Below the pieces are notes generated by a model that did not search any database, was not told the DNA's origin, and saw only the letters and a program-made list of their open reading frames with translations. The translations under genes and the position numbers were made by a program. A stretch of DNA of 64,000 nucleotides from positions 50,535 through 114,534 of the forward strand of contig CAAGDE010000026.1 of assembly GCA_900768535.1 (NCBI GenBank), written 5' to 3'. Positions 61 to 56,943 of this stretch are shown piece after piece (within the stretch, counting starts at the first letter, position 1; every line of letters starts with the position of its first letter). The stretch comes from Clostridia bacterium. GTDB taxonomy: Bacteria > Bacillota > Clostridia > Oscillospirales > CAG-272.

Positions 61-2448
61 TTATTTCAGTTCCACCACCGTCACGCCGCCGTCACCCTCT
101 CCGTACTGTCCCAGCCGGAAGTCCCTGACGCGTTTGTCCTTTTTCAGGTGCTGCCAAAGCGCGTTTTTCAAGGCACCGGTGCCCTTTCCGTGAATCAGGC
201 GGACCTTTCCGAAGCCGGCAACCGTTGCCTCGTCCAGATATTTGTCCACCTCCTGCCAGCCCTCGTCACCCATCAGACCGCGCAGATCGATCTCATCGCG
301 GAAATCGCGGTTGACCTCCACCCGGTAGCCGGCGGCGGGCGCGTGCCTGCCCTCCCGGACGATCTGCGGGGCATCGTCCAGCAGCTGCAGGTTCTCCTGT
401 TTGGTGCGGGTCTTGAGAATGCCTGCCTGCACCAGGACGTTTCCGCTCCTGTCCGGCAGTTCCAGCACCGTTCCCTCACTGCCGACATTGACCAGGTACA
501 CCCGGTCGCCCTTCCGGAGCGGTCGCGGCAGGACGTATTTCTCATCCTGCTTCCGCTCCTCCACCGGGTTGACCGCGTCGGCGTTCTTCCGCAGCTCTGC
601 CCGCACCGCGCGCCGTGCCTCGTCCAAGCCCTCGCGCAGCCGATCCTTTTCCTGTGCCTTCTTCGCCTTTTCCAGCTGCGCAAAGATGAAATCACTGGAG
701 GCTTTGGCGCTGTCCAGCATCTGCTGTGCTTTTTTCTGCTTCTGTTCGATCTCCCGCATGGCATCCTTACGCATCCGGGACAGCTCCGCCTCGGTTTCGG
801 CGCGCCTGTGCTCGTACTCGGTGCGCAGGCGCTCTGCCTCGGCACGGTTGCGGTCTGCCTCCAGGCGCGACTGCTCCAGCCTGCCGATGACCTCCTCGAA
901 CTGCCTGTGATCGGTGCTGACGTGCTGCCGTGCCAGCTCGATGATCTCATGCGGCAGTCCCAGCTTTTCGGAAATGGCAAACGCATTGGATTTTCCCGGC
1001 GTGCCGATGATCAGCCGATAGGTCGGCTTGAGCGTTGCCACATCGAATTCGCAGGAGGCGTTCTGCACCCCCGGCGTATTGAGCGCGTAGGTTTTCAGCT
1101 CGGTATAGTGCGTTGTCGCCACGCACATGGCGCCCGCCCGGCGGACCGATTCGATTACCGCCACCGCCAGCGCCGCGCCCTCCACCGGGTCGGTTCCCGC
1201 GCCAAGCTCGTCAAACAGGCAGAGCGACCGGTCATCGACCTGCTTCATGATCGACACGATGTTGACCATATGCGAGGAGAAGGTGGACAGCGACTGCTCG
1301 ATGCTCTGCTCGTCCCCGATATCCACGAGGATGCTCCGAAACACGCGCACCGACGAATCCGGATCTGCGGGAATGTGCAGTCCCGCCTGCGCCATGATGG
1401 AAAACAGCCCCAGCGTTTTGAGCGTCACGGTCTTACCGCCGGTGTTCGGTCCCGTGATAATCAGCGTGTCACAGCCGTCGCCCATGCGGATATCGGTCGG
1501 GACAACCGTCTCCTTCGGGATCAGCGGATGCCGTGCCCGGCGCAGATTGATCGCTCCGTCCTCGGTGATCTGCGGTGCGGCGCCGTTGATGCGGGACGAA
1601 AACTCCCCGCAGGCGAACCGGAACGCAAGCTCGGTGATGTTGAGGTAATCCAGCCGCAGGGATTCGGACGCCGTACTGACATCCGCCGACAGCGCAAACA
1701 GAATCCGCTCGATTTCATGCTCCTCCTTGGATTGGAGCATCCGCAATTCGTTGTTCGCCTCCACAACCGCCATCGGTTCGACAAAGATGGTGGCGCCGGA
1801 GGAGGAGGTGTCGTGAATCAGCCCCTTGATCTCGTTCTTGCATTCCGCCTTGACCGGCACGACATAGCGCCCGTTCCGCGTGGTCACCAGATTCTCCTGG
1901 AGCGCCTTGGAATAGGAGCCGCTGATATAGTGCTGCAGGGTCTCCTTGATGCGGTTGTTGGTGTCGCGGATCTTACGGCGCAGCTCGGCAAGCTCGTGGC
2001 TTGCTTCATCGGCAATCATGTCCTCGGACAGGACGGAACGCGTAATCCGCTCCTCCAGCGTCCGGTTGCAGAGCAGTCTGCCGAAGATTTCGTCCAAGGA
2101 GGTCGCGAAAGTCCGGTTGGTTTTGTTATAATCGGTCAGCGCCCTGGCGGAACGGAGCAGGCGCGCCACGTCCAGCAGCTCGCGCGTGGAGAGCATGGCG
2201 CCCTTTTCGGCACGTTCGCAGGCGCCGGAGACGTCCCGCACGCTCCCGAACGGCGGCATTCCCTTGGCGTCCGTCAGTCTGCGGGCGTCGGTCGTCTGCT
2301 CCAGCCGGCGGGCTATGATCACCGGGTCATCGGAAGGGGTCAGGCACCGACACATCCCCTTTGCGCCCTCGGTTGCCGCGCAGGATGCAAGCAGATCGCG
2401 GATTTTGTCGAATTCCAGTGTGGTCAGGGTCTTTTCGGAAAAGCTCAT
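61..2448 (-). CDS. mutS2: Endonuclease MutS2 (MutS domain V ATPase plus C-terminal Smr domain)
   Basis: 795-aa ORF with Walker A GPNTGGKT and a C-terminal Smr-like LIHGKGTGALK. Length is typical of MutS2. Confidence 0.95.
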   Translation of the reverse strand: MSFSEKTLTTLEFDKIRDLLASCAATEGAKGMCRCLTPSDDPVIIARRLEQTTDARRLTDAKGMPPFGSVRDVSGACERAEKGAMLSTRELLDVARLLRSARALTDYNKTNRTFATSLDEIFGRLLCNRTLEERITRSVLSEDMIADEASHELAELRRKIRDTNNRIKETLQHYISGSYSKALQENLVTTRNGRYVVPVKAECKNEIKGLIHDTSSSGATIFVEPMAVVEANNELRMLQSKEEHEIERILFALSADVSTASESLRLDYLNITELAFRFACGEFSSRINGAAPQITEDGAINLRRARHPLIPKETVVPTDIRMGDGCDTLIITGPNTGGKTVTLKTLGLFSIMAQAGLHIPADPDSSVRVFRSILVDIGDEQSIEQSLSTFSSHMVNIVSIMKQVDDRSLCLFDELGAGTDPVEGAALAVAVIESVRRAGAMCVATTHYTELKTYALNTPGVQNASCEFDVATLKPTYRLIIGTPGKSNAFAISEKLGLPHEIIELARQHVSTDHRQFEEVIGRLEQSRLEADRNRAEAERLRTEYEHRRAETEAELSRMRKDAMREIEQKQKKAQQMLDSAKASSDFIFAQLEKAKKAQEKDRLREGLDEARRAVRAELRKNADAVNPVEERKQDEKYVLPRPLRKGDRVYLVNVGSEGTVLELPDRSGNVLVQAGILKTRTKQENLQLLDDAPQIVREGRHAPAAGYRVEVNRDFRDEIDLRGLMGDEGWQEVDKYLDEATVAGFGKVRLIHGKGTGALKNALWQHLKKDKRVRDFRLGQYGEGDGGVTVVELK

Positions 2449-3260
2449 GTCTGATTCTGCCTCCGCATGGTGTGATAAAAATTCAGCGCTTCAAAGCCGT
2501 GCCCGACGTGGGAGAGGATGTACGTCTCCGCCGCCTTTGCAAAAGCCGCAAGGTCTGCGGGATCCTTCAGTTCGAACGAAAGGATACGCTCCAGGGGTGC
2601 CGTCCTGCAGTAGCGGAATGCCGCCGTGACCGCCGGGGAGAGGATGCAGATAATCTCCGCCTCTCTCGGATCGTCCGCATACGGGTCGGCGGACGGCACA
2701 GTCTTCTGCCGGTGCGTCCAGCAGTCCCGGCACCACAGGGCACCGTTCATCACGTCCAGATAAAACGGGTCGGAATCCCGCACGCCGCATCCGGAACATC
2801 CGGACAGCCCCGGCTCATATCCGGACAGCACTGCCGCACGGATTTCAAACGCGCCCTTGACCTGCTCCGGGGGACGGATGCCATAGGCGATTGCGTGCAG
2901 GGCGTTGAGCAGGAGCCGGAGCATTTCCCCCGCTTCCTCTCCCTCGTCCGTCAGCTCGCAGGTCAGCTCGCAGAGGTATGCGGCAAGGTTCATCCGATCC
3001 ATGTCCATGGTCAGACCGTAAAACGGCTGGTATGCGGTGCCGTCCTTGAGAATATAACGGATTCCCCGGCGGTAAAACTCAAAATTGCCGTAGGTATACA
3101 GCTGGCTGACCGACAGCTGGGTGGAGCGGATGGCGCGGCTCCCCTTGGAAAGAATGGTAATCCGTCCCTTTTCGGCGGTCAGGACCGACAGATAGCGGTC
3201 ATTTTCTCCCGCGTCCCAAACGCGCACCACCACGCCGTCTATGGATTCATGTACCGCCAT
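2445..3260 (-). CDS. recO: DNA repair protein RecO
   Basis: RecO-like N-terminal OB region (VVRVWDAGENDRYLSVLTAEKGRI) and a Cys-rich Zn module (CSGCG...CRDC). AAGGAGG lies 6 nt upstream of the ATG at 3260. The ORF-track extension to 3356 runs into a repeat and is not credible. Confidence 0.9.
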   Translation of the reverse strand: MAVHESIDGVVVRVWDAGENDRYLSVLTAEKGRITILSKGSRAIRSTQLSVSQLYTYGNFEFYRRGIRYILKDGTAYQPFYGLTMDMDRMNLAAYLCELTCELTDEGEEAGEMLRLLLNALHAIAYGIRPPEQVKGAFEIRAAVLSGYEPGLSGCSGCGVRDSDPFYLDVMNGALWCRDCWTHRQKTVPSADPYADDPREAEIICILSPAVTAAFRYCRTAPLERILSFELKDPADLAAFAKAAETYILSHVGHGFEALNFYHTMRRQNQT

Positions 3261-3280
3261 GGGCTCCTCCTTTAAGGGTA

Positions 3281-3350
3281 AGACCTTGAGACGCTGTCTC
3301 AAACTCTGCTTAGCCCCTTCTTGTAAGAAGGGGCTAAGAACACCAAGAAC
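3281..3350 (-). repeat. Intercistronic element A, copy 1 (two hairpins directly upstream of the recO RBS)
   Basis: About 70 nt, near-identical to 38134-38203. Hairpins are GAGAC-N3-GTCTC and CTTAGCCCCTTCTT/AAGAAGGGGCTAAG. Confidence 0.8.
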
Positions 3351-3402
3351 TTTCACTGCAGGGATTTTTTTACGAAAATCAGGGGGTATTTTGTGCTTTA
3401 TT

Positions 3403-3646
3403 GGGAAGCATTACGTGACTACGTTCGCCGATTTCGCCCTCATCCGGCGCTGGCGCACCACCTTCCCCACCCAGGGGGAAGGCTACTGCGGCAGTCCATA
3501 ATTGATTGGGACAGCGCCGATTGATAAGTGGAATTGAGAAGTAGGACATAAAAAACTTTGTACAGCCGAAAGAAGCCTTCCCCCGGGTGGGGAAGGTGGC
3601 GCGCCAGCGCCGGATGAGGGCGAAATCGGCGAGCGCAACCACGTAA
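3403..3646. repeat. Nested-palindrome repeat unit B (about 80-nt inverted arms around a roughly 90-nt spacer)
   Basis: Arm 3403-3484 is the reverse complement of 3574-3646. The whole unit, spacer included, recurs at 31418-31650. Confidence 0.85.
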
Positions 3647-3660
3647 CACAACCATCCACC

Positions 3661-3732
3661 GTAGCAGCCTTCCCCTTCGAGGGGGAAGGTGGCGCCGCAG
3701 GCGACGGATGAGGGCGAAACGGGCGAGCGCGC
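3661..3732. repeat. Solo, more divergent arm of repeat family B
   Basis: GCCTTCCCCTTCGAGGGGGAAGGTGGCGCC...GGATGAGGGCGAAAC aligns to the right arms at 3574-3646 and 31587-31650. Confidence 0.7.
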
Positions 3733-3775
3733 CATCGAAATTTCCACACCGATTCTGCCATCGACTGCATTTATA

Positions 3776-4657
3776 TTACTGCCTGTATCCGAAATCGCTG
3801 ATTCCGCGGGCACTGTCGCGCCAGTTTTCCTTGACCTTTACCCACAGGTTGAGGTAGACCTTGGTTCCGGTCAGGGCTTCGAGATCCTGCCGGGCATAGG
3901 AGCCGATGCGCTTGAGCGTTTCGCCGTTCTTGCCGACCAGGATCCCCTTGTGGGACTCCTTTTCGCAGAAGATCTCCGCGCGGATGCGGGTCAGGCTGTC
4001 CTCTTCCTTGTATTCCTCAATGACAACCGCAATGCCGTGCGGGATTTCGCGGTCAACGGTGCGCAGAATCTTTTCCCGGATGATTTCGGACGCAAGCTGG
4101 CGCTGGGTCTGATCGGTGATCATATCCTCCTCAAAGATCCAGTCGCCCTCGTGCATAAAGTGCCGGCATTCGTCCAGCAGCTCGTCCACGTTCTTTCCGT
4201 TTTTTGCGGAGATCGGCACCACTGCCGCAAAGTCGTGGAGCGCCGCATATGCCGCAATGGTTTCCGCAATCTGCTCCCGGCGGCAGAGATCGACCTTGTT
4301 CAGCGCCAGGATTGCCGGAATCTCCGCGCGCTTGAGCCGGTCAATGACCCGCTCCTCCACATCGCCGGGACGAAACGCCGCATCCGCCACCAGAATGACC
4401 GCATCTCCGTCCTGCATGGAGCCGGTGGCAACCTTGACCATATAATCGCCGAGCGAATTTCTGGCGTTGAAGATGCCGGGCGTGTCGATGAAAACGAACT
4501 GATCCTCTCCGCGCGTTTCAATGCCGAGAATGCGCCCGCGTGTGGTCTGCGGCTTGGAGGACACAATGGCGATTTTCTCGCCGAGGATGTTGTTCAGAAG
4601 GGTCGATTTCCCGACATTCGGGCGACCGACGATTGCAAAAAAGCCTGTACGTTTCAT
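3776..4657 (-). CDS. era: GTPase Era
   Basis: G1 GRPNVGKST, G3 DTPG, G4 NKVD and a C-terminal KH-like region. The start is placed at MKRTGF, with AAGGA upstream. Confidence 0.93.
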   Translation of the reverse strand: MKRTGFFAIVGRPNVGKSTLLNNILGEKIAIVSSKPQTTRGRILGIETRGEDQFVFIDTPGIFNARNSLGDYMVKVATGSMQDGDAVILVADAAFRPGDVEERVIDRLKRAEIPAILALNKVDLCRREQIAETIAAYAALHDFAAVVPISAKNGKNVDELLDECRHFMHEGDWIFEEDMITDQTQRQLASEIIREKILRTVDREIPHGIAVVIEEYKEEDSLTRIRAEIFCEKESHKGILVGKNGETLKRIGSYARQDLEALTGTKVYLNLWVKVKENWRDSARGISDFGYRQ

Positions 4658-4673
4658 GTGATTGTCCTGTTCC

Positions 4674-5120
4674 TTATTTTCCGAAGAATCCATTCGGATC
4701 CGATTGTTTGTCCAGAAGATCCAGCCGCTTGTCCGTTTGCACGTCCGTGACCTCGCAGAACGTGATTCTGCCGCTTGCACGATCCTCATACGCCAGAAAA
4801 ATGTAATGCCCGAACTGCGTGCTGAAGGTGTTTCCCCGATCCCCCTCGTTCCAGGTTCCGCGGTAGGTACGCAGGCGGGTCATGGTCAGGAGCGTCGGAT
4901 CGTGGGCAAAGTCGATCATATTCTCCACCGACAGCTCCGGCAGCGCCTCGGACTGTTTTTTTTCGGCGCAGTCGCGGATGCGGAAGAAGCTGAGGGGACC
5001 GAAAAAGGCAAAAAAGACGACCATACAGACAAAAAAGGTGATGACCTTGACATTCCTGCCCGCAAAGCCCTCCGGACGGACTGCCTCGCCGTCAGCCGGA
5101 CGTTTTTCTCCCGGGTTCAT
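4674..5120 (-). CDS. Hypothetical single-pass membrane protein
   Basis: 148-aa ORF with one hydrophobic helix (VITFFVCMVVFFAFFGPLSFF). Packed between ybeY and era with a 4-nt overlap to ybeY. No recognisable family. Confidence 0.55.
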   Translation of the reverse strand: MNPGEKRPADGEAVRPEGFAGRNVKVITFFVCMVVFFAFFGPLSFFRIRDCAEKKQSEALPELSVENMIDFAHDPTLLTMTRLRTYRGTWNEGDRGNTFSTQFGHYIFLAYEDRASGRITFCEVTDVQTDKRLDLLDKQSDPNGFFGK

Positions 5121-6698: not shown

Positions 6699-7865
6699 TC
6701 AGTCTGTCACATCAAATTCGACCTGCTCCGCGATGTCCTCAATACACAGAACCGTGCATTCCAGGATGACCTTCTCATCGGTCAGGGTCATAACGGTCGT
6801 GCGGGAGAGCAGCTGCGCGTTTTCGGCAAGTGCACGGAGCTCCGCCTCCAGCCGGTCATACGCCAGCGTGGCGGCTTCCGTCTGCGTCCGCTCCACCGGC
6901 TCCTCCCGCCACAGTCTGCGGAGCTGTTTCCGGAAGGATAGCGGCAGATTGCGCAGGAAGGGCAGATCGGGATGTGTTTCCGTTTCTATTATATCACAAC
7001 TGACTGCCTCATTTCCAGTGTTTTCTGAAATTTTTCCCGTAAAAGCGAAAAAATTCAACCACACGTCACCTTTTTCCGTGGCATAATAGACCTTTTCGGT
7101 GTCCTGCAGGGGGATTTCCACCGTCAACTGATGCTCTGTCCTTGCCGTCACCCGTCCTGCGGCACGGGTAAAGCGGCATCCGATGTTCTCATTTTCGAAA
7201 ATACCGCTGACCAGCAGGTCCCCGCGGCGGACCGCCTGCCCCGCCCGAACCACCGGATTGCCGCGGAACAGCTCAACCGTCTCAATCTGTCCGTCCGTCC
7301 GCGCGACAAGGTCTGCCGGGCGCAGCTGCTCCTCCCTGGGCGGCTTCACCTTTCTCTCCAGCACCTGCACCTTTGCAACCGTTCCCTCCATGTGAATCGA
7401 AATCCACGCAAGCCGGTCGGAGGCAAGCAGGACCCGGTTCTCCACTTCGCCCGCCGAAAAGCCGGGGAGATAGGAGCCGACGCCGAATCCGCTCTCCCCC
7501 AGCACCGCCGTCACCTCCGCCGCGCTCATCTCCCGGTTTCCCGTGACCCGGATATCCCACACGTACAGCCGGGAAACGATCAGAAGCACCAGTGCCAGCA
7601 CACCGCCCAGAATCAGACCGGGACGGCGCAGAATCCGTCCGGCAAGCAGAGGCAGTCCGCCGCGCCGCCCCTCGGAAAAGACCGCCTGCCCGCGCAGCCG
7701 GGGAAGGGATCGGGTGGCACAGAGCAGCCGGATCCCGCCCTCCGGATCGGTGTCAACTGCGGAAAACGGCAGATCGAGCCGCAGGAACGCGTCCAGCAGT
7801 CCGGCGGCGTGCTCCGCATCGGCGGAAAGCTCCGTATATCCGGAAAGAAAGAGAATCGGATTCAT
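6699..7865 (-). CDS. yqfD: Sporulation protein YqfD
   Basis: 388 aa with a central TM segment. Positioned yqfC-yqfD-phoH as in Bacillus and Clostridia. Confidence 0.8.
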   Translation of the reverse strand: MNPILFLSGYTELSADAEHAAGLLDAFLRLDLPFSAVDTDPEGGIRLLCATRSLPRLRGQAVFSEGRRGGLPLLAGRILRRPGLILGGVLALVLLIVSRLYVWDIRVTGNREMSAAEVTAVLGESGFGVGSYLPGFSAGEVENRVLLASDRLAWISIHMEGTVAKVQVLERKVKPPREEQLRPADLVARTDGQIETVELFRGNPVVRAGQAVRRGDLLVSGIFENENIGCRFTRAAGRVTARTEHQLTVEIPLQDTEKVYYATEKGDVWLNFFAFTGKISENTGNEAVSCDIIETETHPDLPFLRNLPLSFRKQLRRLWREEPVERTQTEAATLAYDRLEAELRALAENAQLLSRTTVMTLTDEKVILECTVLCIEDIAEQVEFDVTD

Positions 7866-12442: not shown

Positions 12443-12711
12443 GGGAAATCCGAATTTTTTTACATTGGGAAAGGGCGGAAACGGCGAGCGCACCCACGTA
12501 CGGAACGCCCGTCTCCACGCAAGTCCGTGACAGATGCCGCCGGAGCGGGCTTCCTGTTTTTTCCGAATCCCCCGGTTTCAGGAATTCGGCTTTCCTGCGA
12601 CATCCTTGTCTATCGGTAAATGATACAAAAAACAGCCCCCTTACCACCGGAAAATTCTCCCTCGTATGCTTTTTCACAAAAAAAAGAGCCGAAGTTTGTC
12701 AGAATTCCTAA

Positions 12712-29850: not shown

Positions 29851-31227
29851 TTACAGTCTTCTGAACCGGGAGCCGGACAGCTCCTCAATCTTTTCCTCCA
29901 CCTCGTGAACCGCCAGCGTTGTCTGTCTGCCGCCATCATATTCGGCATCGATCCACGCCTTGAGCTTCTGCACCAGCGGGTCGCGCTTATCGATGCGTTC
30001 CGATTCGGTCAGGCGGTAGTTTTCGTTGATCCAGTACGCAATCCCCGCCAGTCCGGAGGTCTTACCGAGCATGACCGACGCCGGTCTCCCCAGCAGCTTG
30101 CCGGTATCGAAGATGTTGTAGATCTCCTCGTCCTTGAGCAGTCCGTCCGCATGGATTCCCGCGCGGGTGACATTGAAATTTCTGCCAACAAACGGCGTCA
30201 TATCCGGAATGCGGTAGCCGACGTTCCGCTCGAAATAGTCCGCGATCTCGGTAATTACGGTCGGATCCATGCCGTCAAACGAACCGCGCAGGGAGGCATA
30301 CTCGATGACCATCGCCTCCAGCGGGATATTTCCGGTGCGCTCGCCGATGCCCAGCAGGGAGCAGTTGACCCCGCTGGCACCGTACAGCCACGCCGTGGTC
30401 GCGTTGGTGACCGCCTTATAAAAATCGTTGTGCCCGTGCCACTCCAGCATCTGGCTCGGCACATCGGAGTAATGCTGGAGACCGTAGATAATCCCCGGCA
30501 CACTGCGCGGAATGGCAACCTCCGGATACGGAATGCCGTAGCCCATGGTATCGCAGGCACGGATCCTGACCGGAATCTTCGCGTCCGCCGACATCCGCAT
30601 CAGCTCGTTGACAAACGGCACCACGAATCCGTAAAAGTCGGCGCGCGTAATGTCCTCCAGGTGACAGCGCGGCATCACGCCGGCTTCAAACGCATCCGCA
30701 ACGGTTGCCAGGTAGTGCTCCATGCACTGGCGGCGGGTCATCTTCATTTTCCTGAAAATGTGATAATCCGAACAGGAGACGAGAATGCCCGTCTCACGGA
30801 TACCGAGGTCACGTACCAGCCGGAAATCCTCGCGGCTGGCACGGATCCAGGTGGTAATCTCCGGGAAGCGCAGTCCCAGCGCCTGGCACTTCTCCACCGC
30901 TTCCCGATCCTTTTTGCTGTAGACGAAGAACTCGGTCTGGCGGATGATTCCGTACGGTCCGCCGAGCTTGGACATCAGCCGATAGAGATCGACGATCTGC
31001 TCGACCGTGTACGGCTCGACCGACTGCTGTCCGTCACGGAAGGAGGTATCGGTGATCCAGATGTCCTCCGGCATACCGATCGGTACGCGCCGGTGGTTGA
31101 ACGGAATGCGCGGCACACAGCTGTAGGGGTAAACATCGCGGTAAAGATTCGGCTCCTCCACGTCCTGAAGCGAATATTTGTACGCCTTTTGCTCCAACAG
31201 ATTGGTTTTTTTGGATATTTCAAGCAT
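29851..31227 (-). CDS. Re-face citrate synthase candidate (homocitrate/2-isopropylmalate synthase family)
   Basis: DRE-TIM motifs DTSFRDGQQS and HGHNDF. Operon with aconitase and IDH, as in clostridial Re-citrate synthase loci. Start at MLEISKK is consistent with the promoter at 31261-31289. Confidence 0.75.
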   Translation of the reverse strand: MLEISKKTNLLEQKAYKYSLQDVEEPNLYRDVYPYSCVPRIPFNHRRVPIGMPEDIWITDTSFRDGQQSVEPYTVEQIVDLYRLMSKLGGPYGIIRQTEFFVYSKKDREAVEKCQALGLRFPEITTWIRASREDFRLVRDLGIRETGILVSCSDYHIFRKMKMTRRQCMEHYLATVADAFEAGVMPRCHLEDITRADFYGFVVPFVNELMRMSADAKIPVRIRACDTMGYGIPYPEVAIPRSVPGIIYGLQHYSDVPSQMLEWHGHNDFYKAVTNATTAWLYGASGVNCSLLGIGERTGNIPLEAMVIEYASLRGSFDGMDPTVITEIADYFERNVGYRIPDMTPFVGRNFNVTRAGIHADGLLKDEEIYNIFDTGKLLGRPASVMLGKTSGLAGIAYWINENYRLTESERIDKRDPLVQKLKAWIDAEYDGGRQTTLAVHEVEEKIEELSGSRFRRL

Positions 31228-31252
31228 CTGTGCCACCGTCCTTTCGTATTTG

Positions 31253-31289
31253 TGTATACAATTATACACGAAAACAAAGGATTTGTCAA
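31253..31289 (-). promoter_or_regulatory. Consensus promoter of the citrate synthase operon with a palindrome at the predicted +1
   Basis: Minus strand TTGACA-17-TATAAT, immediately followed by the perfect palindrome TGTATACA (31253-31260). Confidence 0.6.
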
Positions 31290-31392
31290 GGGCTTGCGGA
31301 AAGTTTTCCATATTATTTTCCGAAAATCCGGGTTCCCCCGCCGTTTCGTCCGCATCCGTCGCCTGCGGCGCTAAACTGCTTGCAGTTTTCTT

Positions 31393-31650
31393 ACCACCTC
31401 GAAGGGGAACTTGGGGTGGGAAGCCATACGTGATTGCGCTCGCCCATTTCGCCCTCATCCGGCGCTGGCGTGCCACCTTCCCCACCCGGGGGAAGGCTAC
31501 TGCGGCGGTTCGTAACTGATAGACACAGCGCCGATTTATAAGCAGGATTGAGGGGGGGATGTAACAAAATTTGCACAGCCGAAAGAAGCCTTCCCCCGGG
31601 TGGGGAAGGTGGCGCGCCAGCGCCGGATGAGGGCGAAATGGGCGAGCGTA
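31393..31650. repeat. Second locus of the nested-palindrome repeat family B (full unit plus partial extra arm)
   Basis: Arms 31418-31498 and 31587-31650 are inverted copies. The arms and spacer are homologous to 3403-3646. Confidence 0.85.
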
Positions 31651-31686: not shown

Positions 31687-32085
31687 CTACATCCCCCGGA
31701 ACGGATCGTTTCGTGCCATCCGTTCCAGTCGGATGCCAACCACGGTCAGTCCCCGGCGGAAGGCACGGTAGGCGGTGCGGCGCGAAATGCCGAGAATCGC
31801 CGCCGCGCGCTCCACGCTCTCCCCCCGGATGTAACGGTGATACAGCACCAGCTTGTCCCGACCGTTCCGGAGCGATGCGATCGCCTGCCCGATCTCCTCC
31901 ATCCGCGCCCGCCAGAACGCCTCGTTTCCGGCAAGCACATCCTCACACCGGCACGGCTCGTCAAAGGTTTCCGCCCGGCGCCGCTCATATCGCTTCAGCT
32001 CCAGCAGATCCAGACACAGCTGATACCCCGCCAAAAAATCCCGTGCCGCCGCAACGCGTGCGTCCGTCCGCTCCTGCTCGGTCAT
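31687..32085 (-). CDS. Small sigma-70 region-4-like / phage-type transcription activator-like protein
   Basis: 132 aa with the C-terminal HTH pattern DKLVLYHRYIRGESVERAAAILGISRRTAYRAFRRGL. Start at MTEQERT. Confidence 0.55.
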   Translation of the reverse strand: MTEQERTDARVAAARDFLAGYQLCLDLLELKRYERRRAETFDEPCRCEDVLAGNEAFWRARMEEIGQAIASLRNGRDKLVLYHRYIRGESVERAAAILGISRRTAYRAFRRGLTVVGIRLERMARNDPFRGM

Positions 32086-32225
32086 GCCTTCACCTGCTTT
32101 CGTGTGCTTCGGAAACACGAATGAACATTCCCGTTTCCCGTTCGGTTTTCCGTCCGGGTGATGAATTCCGACCTTTGATGAAATACCCGATTTGTCATTT
32201 GTTTTCCCCTTTTTTCATTTTTCTG

Positions 32226-36263: not shown

Positions 36264-36352
36264 TGGCGGAGAGGAAGGGATTCGAACCCTTGTGGGGTTG
36301 CCCCCAAACGGTTTTCAAGACCGCCTCGTTATGACCGCTTCGATACCTCTCC
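36264..36352 (-). tRNA. tRNA-Ser (anticodon UGA), CCA encoded
   Basis: Acceptor GGAGAGG/CCTCTCC, anticodon loop CTTGAAA, long variable arm TGGGGGCAACCCCACA and T-arm GGGTTCGAATCCC. Confidence 0.92.
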
Positions 36353-36503: not shown

Positions 36504-36544
36504 TTTTCAAGACCGCCTCGTTATGACCGCTTCGATATCCCTCC
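36504..36544 (-). pseudogene. Truncated tRNA-Ser copy (5' half up to the anticodon loop only)
   Basis: 34 nt identical to 36312-36345 and then near-identical to the tRNA 5' end. No T-arm follows. Confidence 0.7.
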
Positions 36545-36635
36545 GTATAAACGGAACTATGAAACTGTAATCTGAAAAAGCATCAAAAGAAAATGCCGGA
36601 TGCCCGGAATTCAGGTCCTTTGCAAAACCATGTTT

Positions 36636-38117: not shown

Positions 38118-38133
38118 GCAATCAACTCCTTAA

Positions 38134-38203
38134 AGACCTTGAGACTCCGTCTCAAACTCTGCTTAGAACCTTCTTGCAAGAAGGTTCTAAGAACTCCAAG
38201 AAC
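38134..38203 (-). repeat. Intercistronic element A, copy 2 (directly upstream of the M20 gene RBS)
   Basis: Near-identical to 3281-3350. The long hairpin here is CTTAGAACCTTCTT/AAGAAGGTTCTAAG. Confidence 0.8.
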
Positions 38204-38264
38204 CTTTAACAAGGGGGCTTACTTATATTTTTCTCACAAATCGGGACATTATACGCGGTCAGTC

Positions 38265-55503: not shown

Positions 55504-56943
55504 TCACCCCTCAAACAGCGCGCGCACAAACTCGGTGCGGTCGAATTCCTGCATATCGTCCAGCTTTTCGCCGACGCCGATGAACTTGACCGGAATGTTC
55601 AGCTCCTTGCGGATGGAGATCACGATGCCGCCCTTTGCCGTGCCGTCCAGCTTGTTCAGAATCAGCCCGGTCAGTGCCGCGGCGTTCTTGAACTCCTTTG
55701 CCTGTATAATGGCGTTCTGTCCGGTGGTCGCGTCCAGAACCAGCAGGTTTTCCCGCGCGGCGCCCGGCAGCTCACGGTCGATGACGCGGTTGATCTTTGC
55801 CAGCTCATTCATCAGGTTGGTCTTGTTGTGCAGCCGCCCCGCCGTGTCGATGATCAGCACATCGGCGTGCTTGTTCTTTGCGGCATGGCAGGCGTCAAAC
55901 ACCACCGCCGCCGGGTCACTGCCCTCACTCTGGCGAACCAATTCCACCTTTGCCCGCTCGCACCAGACCGCCAGCTGATCGATTGCCGCCGCGCGGAAGG
56001 TATCCGCCGCCGCTACGATCACCCGCTTGCCTTCCTTGCGCAGCCGGTTGGAGATCTTGCCGATGGAGGTCGTTTTTCCGACCCCGTTGACACCGATGAC
56101 CAGAATCACGGACGGCTCCGTGTCCAGCTTCAGTTCCTCGCCCTCGCCGATCATCCGCTCCAGGATGCTCTGCAGCGCGCCCATGACCTGCTCTTTTTCC
56201 TTGAGTCTGCCGTCCCTGATCTGCTCCCGCAGCTCCTCAATGATCTCCTCGGACGCATTGACGCCGACATCCGCGCAGATCAGCAGCTCCTCCAGCTCCT
56301 CCAGAAGATCCTCATCGACCTTGACGAAATTCTTCAGCAGATCGTTGATCTGTCCGAACAGCGCGTTTTTGGTTTTGGTCAGCCCCGCTCTGACACGGCT
56401 CCAGAAGGAGGTTTTCTCCTTCTTTTTTTCTTCCGCCGTCAGCGGTGCCTCCTCCGGGACGGCTTCCGATGTAGCCTCGGAGGCGGGCTCCGGGGCAGGC
56501 TGTGCCTCCTCCTTCGGCGCTTCCGGTGCAGGCTCCGGCTTCTTCTCCGGCTCCGGTTCGGGCACCTTTTCGGGCTCCGGCTCCGGGGTCAGCTCCGGCT
56601 CGGTGACGGGAATCACCTCCGGGGCGGACTCTGCCGCTTCCTCCGGCTTTTCGGGCACCGCGGGAACCTCCGGCGGAACCGGATCCTCCTGTTCCTCCGT
56701 CAGATCCGGAATGATCGGCTGCAGGGGCGCCTCCGGTGCGCCGGGCTCGGTGGGAGCAACCGGCACGTCGGGAACAACCTCCGGTGCCTGTTCGGGTGCC
56801 TGTTCGGGTTCCGGCTCCGGTTCGGGCGCAGGCTTAGGCAGCGGCTCGGTTTCCTCCGTTTCCGGCTCCGCTGCTGCGGTCCGCCCGACTGCGGCTTCCT
56901 CTTTTTTCTTCTTTCTGCCGAAGAGCTTATCCAAAAATCCCAT
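55504..56943 (-). CDS. ftsY: Signal recognition particle receptor FtsY with a long acidic Pro/Glu-rich N-terminal region
   Basis: NG domain with GVNGVGKTT, DTAGR and LNKLDG. Start MGFLDKLFG overlaps the smc 3' end by 17 nt. Confidence 0.92.
   Translation of the reverse strand: MGFLDKLFGRKKKKEEAAVGRTAAAEPETEETEPLPKPAPEPEPEPEQAPEQAPEVVPDVPVAPTEPGAPEAPLQPIIPDLTEEQEDPVPPEVPAVPEKPEEAAESAPEVIPVTEPELTPEPEPEKVPEPEPEKKPEPAPEAPKEEAQPAPEPASEATSEAVPEEAPLTAEEKKKEKTSFWSRVRAGLTKTKNALFGQINDLLKNFVKVDEDLLEELEELLICADVGVNASEEIIEELREQIRDGRLKEKEQVMGALQSILERMIGEGEELKLDTEPSVILVIGVNGVGKTTSIGKISNRLRKEGKRVIVAAADTFRAAAIDQLAVWCERAKVELVRQSEGSDPAAVVFDACHAAKNKHADVLIIDTAGRLHNKTNLMNELAKINRVIDRELPGAARENLLVLDATTGQNAIIQAKEFKNAAALTGLILNKLDGTAKGGIVISIRKELNIPVKFIGVGEKLDDMQEFDRTEFVRALFEG

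Follow-up and report, generated by a model that had tools for sequence, protein, structure and literature searches.

Among bacteria, miniature inverted-repeat transposable elements (MITEs) are exemplified by the Correia elements (CREE) of Neisseria, RUP of Streptococcus pneumoniae and ERIC/IRU of enterobacteria, and the Correia elements have TA duplications. The BOX repeat of S. pneumoniae is a modular, non-coding, hairpin-forming intergenic repeat of a Firmicute, with exchangeable boxes and often co-transcribed; to our knowledge, BOX elements lack long terminal inverted repeats and leave no target duplication. We likewise know of no target duplication left by the chemistry of Y1 transposases such as the RAYTs (transposases associated with repetitive extragenic palindromes, REPs). 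REPs have been described as small palindromic repeats of 20-40 bp, bearing a conserved tetranucleotide, GTAG or CGTC, on one side of the palindrome (PMC3733652). Of the RAYTs, only Group 1 has been reported in Clostridia, and high-copy populations of REPINs (REP doublets forming hairpins) have been described for Groups 2 and 3 (PMC5581495). The Rhizobium-specific intergenic mosaic elements RIME1/2 and the Sm-repeats of Sinorhizobium (Osteras et al. 1995) are cited in PMC2573895. Here we analyze a cluster of nested palindromes between era and recO in a stretch of 64,000 nucleotides from a Clostridia bacterium of the CAG-272 lineage (contig CAAGDE010000026.1, positions 50,535 to 114,534, assembly GCA_900768535.1), hereafter the window. 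We suggest that the cluster probably consists of copies and remnants of a non-autonomous MITE-type family with REP-like hairpin modules, arranged in mosaics like those of bacterial interspersed mosaic elements (BIMEs).

Both genes lie on the minus strand (recO, 2445-3260; era, 3776-4789; window coordinates), and the 515 bp between the era stop at 3776 and the recO start at 3260, first noted in a sequence-only reading of this DNA, are borne out by the gene coordinates. The window has a G+C content of 59.5%, and its Era and RecO are Clostridia-like (RecO homologues carry PF11967/PF02565). A 6.2 kb segment that includes the second repeat unit is 99.25% identical to contig JAXEJR010000181 of the metagenome-assembled genome (MAG) GCA_034101435.1 ('Eubacteriales bacterium'), and the site of that unit in this conspecific MAG is identical to the window. 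The nested-palindrome cluster between era and recO is real. Its unit is called W1 (unit 1, with arms A1 and A2, next to which lies the third arm A3) and the second unit W2 (unit 2, with arms B1 and B2, next to which lies the degenerate arm B0); L-numbers denote compared contigs or loci outside the window. The features of the arm family in the window are as follows.

3402-3491 (no strand assigned): A1, left arm of unit 1, in tail-outside orientation; outer end TGGGAAGCATTACGTG...CGCC, tail TTCGCCCTCATCCGG, hairpin 2 at 3446-3459, hairpin 1 (CCTTCCCCACCCAGGGGGAAGG) at 3461-3482
3432-3489, minus strand: covariance model match of A1, 50.6 bits, E = 1e-14
3492-3568: spacer of unit 1, ~75-80% identical to the spacer of unit 2
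3569-3660: A2, right arm of unit 1; hairpin 1, TGG, hairpin 2 (GGCGC-GCCA-GCGCC), GGATGAGGGCGAAAT, outer end ...CACGTAACACAACCATCCA
3569-3625, plus strand: covariance model match of A2, 55.1 bits, E = 3e-16
3661-3745: A3, third, more divergent arm; model match at 3661-3719 (plus strand), 46.1 bits
12454-12500: arm remnant in which TTGGGAAA is joined to ~35 nt from the outer end of a right arm (GGGCGGAAACGGCGAGCGCACCCACGTA)
31344-31412: B0, degenerate extra arm adjoining unit 2, A3-like; model E = 0.077
31417-31503: B1, left arm of unit 2; model match at 31447-31503 (minus strand), 48.9 bits
31504-31581: spacer of unit 2, as aligned with unit 1
31582-31650: B2, right arm of unit 2, outer end truncated after GGCGAGCGTAC; model match at 31582-31638 (plus strand), 55.1 bits

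A repeat finder placed the inverted arms of unit 1 at 3411-3503 and 3554-3646 (93 nt, 82% complementary, 50 nt between them) and paired the third arm with the first (3450-3491 with 3659-3700, 3422-3455 with 3696-3729). The inverted pair of ~80-nt arms and the solo third arm of the sequence-only reading are thus both found, the latter also by its model match, and the pair reaches further outward than described, to about 3402 and about 3660. The complete second unit with a homologous spacer was seen correctly as well: unit 2 (31417-31648) matches unit 1 at 87.2% identity over 234 nt that include the spacer. Searched with a covariance model built from one arm, the 64 kb yield exactly five strong arms (E <= 3e-13). 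With as many as 3 mismatches allowed, the window holds 4 occurrences of the 19-mer CCTCATCCGGCGCTGGCGC against a shuffle mean of 0.17, a count reached by none of 100 shuffles. The window units are ~235-260 nt long. Folded as single-stranded DNA, the unit has an energy of -100.8 kcal/mol, compared with -40.2 +/- 4.0 for shuffles (z = -15.2), and the entire era-recO intergenic region folded as RNA also gives z = -15.2. The spacer block ACAGCGCCGATT is common to all four window-type units (W1, W2, L065 and L068). Hairpin 2 of A3 is of the GGCGCC-GCA-GGCGAC type, a subtype that also occurs in Eubacterium sp. CAG:180 and UMGS1014, and B0 holds a 20-nt palindromic insertion (AAACTGCTTGCAGTTT), a variant shared with the left arm of L068.

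The five arms of the window and about 140 copies in other genomes share one plan: hairpin 1, TGG, hairpin 2, the tail CGGATGAGGGCGAA and a more variable outer end. Hairpin 1 has the form CCTTCCCC(C)-loop-(G)GGGGAAGG, with a nearly invariant stem and a free loop. The hairpin CCTTCCCC-N5/6-GGGGAAGG is present in every arm, in line with the earlier observation that each arm folds on itself. Hairpin 2 (10-17 nt) has a stem of 4-6 bp of variable sequence and a loop of 3-4 nt, and is followed by the invariant tail. Its compensatory variants are GGCGC/GCGCC, GTCAC/GTGAC, GTCGCC/GGCGAC, CAACC/GGTTG, CTGCC/GGCAG, CCCGC/GCGGG and GGCC/GGCC. In the structural alignment, 96.8% of the cells are paired, compared with 89.0% in shuffles and 38-67% in slid controls, and both sides have changed at 8 pairs (135 cells), with none of 500 shuffles reaching the observed values. 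The hairpins are maintained by compensatory change. Because the copies share ancestry and were aligned by fitting them to the structure, the alignment speaks for the maintenance of the hairpins only, and not for a DNA or an RNA role.

A search for copies elsewhere had been proposed as a check on mobility, and dozens were found in related genomes, which favours a mobile repeat. Scanning 185,579 species genomes with the pattern GGAAGGTGG-N5-14-CGGATGAGGGCGAA gave 50 stretches: 29 contigs of Oscillibacter sp. RGIG3329 (goat rumen), 6 of Eubacterium sp. CAG:180, 5 of UMGS1014, and single ones in other Clostridia, with a few in other phyla. The arms in RGIG3329, CAG:180 and UMGS1014 are 86-91% identical to those of the window, whose own two units occupy unrelated intergenic sites. 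The covariance model had about 140 full-length matches in 405 kb, and 26 doublets have the geometry of the window (hairpins inward, tails outward), with spacers of mostly 85-97 nt. Arms that look solo usually have as their partner, across a similar spacer, an arm of a different hairpin family. Beyond the window, only the human-gut metagenome UEQL01 contains exact window-type arms (five more contigs). The copies are intergenic, lie between co-directional genes in the cases examined, and occur in both orientations. Many of the scan matches are at contig ends; at least 10 contigs of RGIG3329 and CAG:180 start or stop within about 350 nt of an arm, most of them within 80 nt, and contig L070 stops inside a unit. 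A scan of viral contigs for arms gave 0 matches, and the matches in a phage collection were limited to 5 unannotated faecal 'Bacteriophage sp.' contigs. A different arrangement was seen in Clostridiales bacterium UBA6330 (L033 2670-3051), where four arms form a direct tandem array with a period of ~109 nt and not inverted doublets; a run of N hides one end of this array.

The strongest trace of transposition comes from RGIG3329. Its complete elements are 256-319 nt long, with the termini GTATGCGTAAAG...CTTTACGCATAC, and 5 of the 11 are flanked by direct target duplications of 8-10 bp, each of a different sequence (gcgctttcc, 9/9; acaaaagc, 8/8; and three others with one mismatch). The chance of such a duplication is about 4e-4 per element. 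A mini-element of 60 nt, made of the two termini only, is flanked by GATAGTTT as its duplication, and in other copies from this genome the same termini enclose a different palindromic cargo. RGIG3329 also holds at least two additional palindromic families, namely CCCCCCTCTGTCAC-TTC-GTGACATCTCCCCCC-loop-GGGGGGCGAC and CCCCTCCCCCTGTCCCCCTCCCCTTTCAGGGGCGGGGG (L012 2790-2940, L026 1083-1300 and 4700-4850, L029, L032 300-400, L037, L038 4230-4467). Both have the same plan of two hairpins and a G-rich tail, and are paired with family-1 arms or carried between GTATGCGTAAAG termini.

Terminal inverted repeats together with target-site duplications, as in these RGIG3329 homologues, are the signature of cut-or-copy transposition in which the target is cut in a staggered way, and hence of a MITE, and not of an HUH/Y1 system (RAYT, IS200/IS605). 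Among the other marks of a MITE, small size, no coding capacity and dispersed copies with filled and empty sites were found as well. It could also be suggested that the arms are REPs moved by a RAYT, with the inverted doublet as the replicative REPIN unit; a single-copy HUH/Y1 RAYT encoded elsewhere would then cut and paste the arms as single-stranded hairpins at the replication fork. High-copy extragenic palindromes arranged as inverted doublets are indeed present, the doublet being the dominant form (26, with the about 140 model matches). Furthermore, GC-rich nested palindromes adjoin a conserved single-stranded motif, the mosaic clusters mix hairpin families while similar linkers are kept, the copies lie between genes, co-directional ones in the cases examined, and Group 1 RAYTs have been reported from Clostridia (PMC5581495). 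The tetranucleotide GTAG stands immediately 5' of hairpin 1 (CCGCAGTAGCCTTCCCC) in A1, B1, L065 and L068, with a near version, GTAGCAG, in A3. However, this head is absent from A2, B2 and nearly all RGIG3329 arms, and most arms have GAAAGAAGCC, TTTGCC or TTTACC instead. The arms (80-95 nt) and spacers (85-97 nt) exceed the 20-40 bp given for typical REPs in PMC3733652. Insertion without target duplication is not what the homologues in RGIG3329 display, where five of the eleven elements and the mini-element have duplications of 8-10 bp and defined terminal inverted repeats. We also found no Y1 homologue by tblastn with four approximate Y1-transposase queries in the window and 69 loci (476 kb), although this is a weak point because RAYTs are single-copy. 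Weak RAYT/IS200/IS608 matches in L011, L030 and L032 sit in ordinary open reading frames (ORFs) and were rejected. We therefore regard movement by a RAYT as unlikely.

The MITE-type assignment is also in agreement with the gene order of related bacteria. The description of era and recO as normally contiguous is correct for the lineage of the host, as seen in the orthologous junctions recovered through RecO homologues.

L052, RecO 85% identical: era-recO gap of 12 bp, empty
L059, RecO 80% identical: gap of 15 bp, empty
L061, RecO 76% identical: gap of 24 bp, empty
L056, RecO 71% identical: gap of 27 bp, empty
L054, RecO 70% identical: gap of 30 bp, empty
L057, RecO 83% identical: gap of 226 bp, with an inverted doublet of the type-B repeat (a second family, described below)
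L051, RecO 99% identical (conspecific): gap of 267 bp, with arm A3, the 3733-3775 stretch and type-B, and no doublet

As the gaps of five relatives with 70-85% RecO identity measure only 12-30 bp, the ~500 bp of the window are lineage-specific inserted DNA, and these empty sites, which had been named as a check, again favour a mobile repeat. From such comparisons, the junction is a hot spot in which the content of a lineage-specific insert turns over fast by deletion and module exchange. In the place of the doublet, L051 has the terminal ~20 nt of the doublet (TGGATGGTTGCGTTACGTGG) and an exact 17-nt piece of hairpin 2, and it is a deletion derivative and not a virgin site. A complete unit is present in L065 (97.8% identical, human gut; 6824-7072) where the window has the ~45-nt remnant at 12454-12500. 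The synteny between the two ends exactly at the arm, with unrelated sequence after the remnant of the window, suggesting recombination or a larger insertion or deletion at this repeat. At the site of unit 2, L071 and L072, in which the neighboring sigma-like protein is 95% identical, have a different mosaic, composed of a window-type half-arm fused to another hairpin family. No clean filled and empty pair within a species was found among L051 (a deletion), L065 (a synteny break) and L071/L072 (another mosaic). The gene adjoining unit 2 (31687-32118, minus strand) encodes a small sigma-70 region-4/helix-turn-helix protein, and the next gene is HMGL-like (homocitrate/isopropylmalate synthase-type). 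In L074, where the helix-turn-helix protein is 86% identical, cotJA-cotJB-cotJC follows, so that the gene order differs at the repeat-bearing junction.

The core of the arm is shared far beyond the Clostridia. Copies of a 50-nt core were found in MAGs of Hyphomicrobiales (two loci), Pirellulales (two loci), Rudaea and Lentisphaerae, and on plasmids or chromids of Shinella, Methylobacterium, Methylosinus, Azospirillum and Nitratireductor. In the six MAG loci that were read, hairpin 1 and the tail are nearly the same letter for letter, and hairpin 2 has been remade with other bases. Of the core positions, just 23 were fixed by the search pattern, which dictates neither the 5' half of hairpin 1 nor the palindromy of hairpin 2. 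Genes adjoining these copies look by eye like ordinary ORFs, with no shared neighbor.

Several points weigh against a MITE-type origin of the window cluster. No target-site duplication is seen at the window's own copies (unit 1 abuts A3, and the right end of unit 2 is truncated), so that of the duplications proposed as a check in the sequence-only reading, those of 8-10 bp in the homologues of the sister species stand and none is seen in the window. The evidence of duplication would thus be transferred from a different species by homology, and the window-type copies are too few to fix the termini of the element. No transposase with matching ends, and no parent insertion sequence encoding one, was found in the 476 kb, where families beyond Y1 were not searched systematically. 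Nor was a transposase seen where a full-length element might span distant arms (L036) or widely spaced termini (L020, L026, L038): these intervals hold housekeeping genes, a mini-element and alternative-cargo elements, and the few candidate ORFs checked with Pfam were ordinary or unmatched. Within the species, the polymorphism at era-recO is deletion and not clean insertion or excision. Finally, the internal core is more conserved than the termini of its carrier, and across phyla, which is unlike the expected inverted repeat bound by a transposase; the core may be a cargo with its own reason to exist. Because the duplications are in sister species only and no transposase was found, we put the MITE-type assignment no higher than probable. 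It is supported by the copy census, the empty sites, the sister-species duplications and the rejection of a protein origin (discussed below), and the sequence-only reading, which compared the architecture with a MITE or REP-type element, is upheld in this respect.

If the conservation of the core is given more weight, the 50-58-nt segment of hairpin 1, UGG, hairpin 2 and CGGAUGAGGGCGAA could be seen as an autonomous cross-phylum module that travels as the cargo of transposons of different build and is found in Clostridia, Alphaproteobacteria, Planctomycetes, Lentisphaerae and Gammaproteobacteria. Its persistence would be due to a sequence-specific protein (a transposase, nuclease or host factor) or to a functional single-stranded DNA or RNA itself. 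We consider this idea rather doubtful. If true, such a module would be a new, widespread class of structured repeat, and if the core is a recognized module, it points to a protein partner shared by very distant bacteria.

The same conservation raises the possibility of a structured RNA or regulatory element selected by the host, in which the ~240-nt unit or the 58-nt two-hairpin module is functional as a processing site, mRNA stabilizer, terminator or insulator, or small RNA, and is not a selfish element. Invariant single-stranded stretches (GGUGG, CGGAUGAGGGCGAA) and covarying stems are present across phyla, a pattern of conservation like that of a recognized RNA or single-stranded DNA. Both window units lie inside strings of co-directional genes and would be transcribed by read-through, and hairpin 1 of A2, on the transcribed strand, is followed by CUUCUUUCGG and has a terminator-like score. 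However, palindromic DNA repeats give the same covariation without any RNA function, and wobble or mismatch positions indicate no strand preference, since T.G in A1 and A.C in B1 point in opposite ways. Rfam 15 at the gathering threshold returned only RNase P and one tRNA from the whole window, and at E <= 10 the region 3200-3850 gave only noise (<= 17 bits), with no family match. No promoter-like site was found, and the terminator-like count of 2 is within that of shuffles (1.1 +/- 1.2). A hammerhead reading of the CUGAUGAG variant was rejected by eye, as no GAAA follows stem II. The copies occur in both orientations, are absent from the orthologous sites of close relatives and are being deleted within the species, and are therefore not needed at any given locus. 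The structured RNA of ~240 nt that had been offered as an alternative thus gains no positive support from the empty Rfam result and a covariation equally expected of a DNA palindrome, and we judge an RNA selected by the host to be very unlikely.

It had also been foreseen that ORF callers would translate the arms as a recurring pseudo-peptide, and this is the case. The peptide reads FALIRRWRTTFPTQGEGY in unit 1 and FALIRRWRATFPTRGKA in unit 2, and the era-recO cluster of a 'Eubacteriales bacterium' MAG has been deposited as a hypothetical protein (P0267). The arms could accordingly be a decayed protein gene or a real small-protein repeat, with FALIRRWRATFPTRGKA and its relatives once or now translated: ORFs run through the arms at 3241-3501 (plus strand), 3379-3813 (minus strand) and 31178-31519 (plus strand), and gene callers have deposited such ORFs in public databases. 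However, in a search of concatenated pseudo-peptide queries against 5.8 billion proteins, all 89 matches had lengths of 70-217 aa and formed small clusters (79 of a single sequence, none with more than 3 members and none with a Pfam domain), and the only name among them was 'hypothetical protein'. Between them, the matches translate this DNA in every one of the six frames, and beyond FPT the frames of unit 1 and unit 2 part because of a 1-nt indel. The window ORFs through the arms had no Pfam match. Compensatory variation at the nucleotide level, variation in hairpin length and the presence of both orientations are likewise at odds with a protein. No protein family stands behind the pseudo-peptide, and a protein-fragment origin is effectively refuted by the short, domain-less singleton ORFs and the lost frame; we give it almost no credence.

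Returning to the MITE-type family, a possible course of events can be outlined. A complete element of ~260 nt, with inverted arms of ~80-95 nt around a spacer of ~50-90 nt, would be recognized at its ends by a transposase encoded elsewhere in the genome, and a staggered cut at insertion would leave the target duplication of 8-10 bp. Copies would land in intergenic DNA, also inside operons, and preferentially beside or inside earlier copies, hence clusters that form BIME-like mosaics. Since each element is nearly a perfect long palindrome, its copies would decay by internal deletion, spacer inversion and module exchange between families. At least three such events and one insertion of the second family could have expanded a junction of a few tens of bp to 515 bp. 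A read-through era-recO transcript would hold a double-stranded RNA hairpin of ~80 bp, presumably tolerated inside such an operon, and this hairpin could act as a processing or stability site that uncouples era and recO.

The family matters mainly for assembling and annotating gut Clostridia genomes. Short-read assemblies from gut and rumen Clostridia break at these repeats, which also seed protein databases with spurious 'hypothetical proteins' (89 small domain-less clusters). The repeats are good strain markers because their content differs between strains that are 98-99% identical, and core-gene operon junctions such as era-recO are insertion hot spots in the lineage of the host.

The statement that the gap consists almost wholly of repeats holds for the arms and needs correction elsewhere. 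The stretch at 3733-3775, taken as a repeat under the name 'element A', could not be confirmed as one: it has no second copy in the window or in 70 loci, and its sole other match is at the orthologous site in L051. The recO side of the gap belongs to a second, unrelated family.

3280-3353, minus strand: solo copy of the type-B repeat, directly upstream of the recO ribosome-binding site, part of the same mosaic cluster and unrelated to the arm family

The type-B copy at 3280-3353 is 88% identical to a second one in the window at 38133-38206, and further copies were found at L057 1060-1250, L066 1647-1724, L067 4540-4610, L068 3188-3410 and 4679-4763, and L069 1838-1924. On the plus strand, the repeat reads AAGACCTTGAGAC-N-GTCTCAA-ACTCTG-CTTAGCCCCTTCTT-GT-AAGAAGGGGCTAAG-AACACCAAGAACTTT. 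It forms two hairpins, and the larger stem is compensatory between copies (GCCCC/GGGGC versus GAACC/GGTTC). At recO, the gene from 38117, L067 and L057, the repeat ends 5-30 nt upstream of a Shine-Dalgarno sequence and ATG, in the same orientation. Neither an Rfam match nor a promoter-like site was found for type-B, which might serve as a 5' stabilizer or processing hairpin, or might be an element that prefers targets close to ribosome-binding sites.

Two other repeats of the window are separate from both families. A 46-nt stretch overlapping tRNA-Ser(tga) recurs at 36264-36352 and 36504-36549 (96% identical, 192 nt apart) and could be a partial tRNA duplication, e.g., the attachment-site scar of an integrated element. 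At 56522-56847, periodic repeats of 12/18 nt (TCCGGCTCCGGTTCGGGC...) lie on one strand of an apparent coding sequence, which is probably a low-complexity protein segment rich in Gly, Ser, Pro and Glu.

A literature search with sequence words and with REPIN, RAYT and Firmicutes as terms found no description of this repeat family. The family itself is undescribed, and the kind of element, MITE or REP/BIME, is an ordinary and known one. Like MITEs, it is shorter than 350 nt, non-coding and multi-copy, and folds into one long hairpin. It also shares with them the target duplications (in the sister-species copies), intergenic and intra-operon insertion, and presence or absence differences between strains and species, and its copies break short-read assemblies. 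It differs from MITEs in that the arms are unusually long (80-95 nt) with two nested hairpins, the core and not the termini is most conserved and is shared across phyla, and the same termini carry exchangeable palindromic cargo or none. The duplication of 8-10 bp also differs from the TA of Correia elements.

The likeness to the REP, BIME and REPIN-RAYT systems of Proteobacteria (PMC3116915, PMC2817692, PMC5581495) lies in the GC-rich extragenic palindromes, the inverted doublets, the mosaic clusters with recurring linkers, the GTAG head on some copies, and solo copies resembling doublet remnants. Unlike in those systems, target duplications occur and the terminal repeats are defined, the size of the units is two to three times greater, no RAYT was found in the 476 kb, and the host is an uncultured gut Clostridia bacterium. 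The RIME repeats are, by description, a similar intergenic mosaic of large palindromes of unknown function, and Alphaproteobacteria hold close relatives of the 50-nt core, although no Sinorhizobium plasmid matched. A rhizobial source for the window repeat (RIME or Bru-RS) was rejected, as Era and RecO are Clostridia-like and the window is 99.25% identical to the 'Eubacteriales bacterium' MAG. With BOX, the family has no sequence similarity, and the resemblance is that of a modular, non-coding, hairpin-forming intergenic repeat of a Firmicute.

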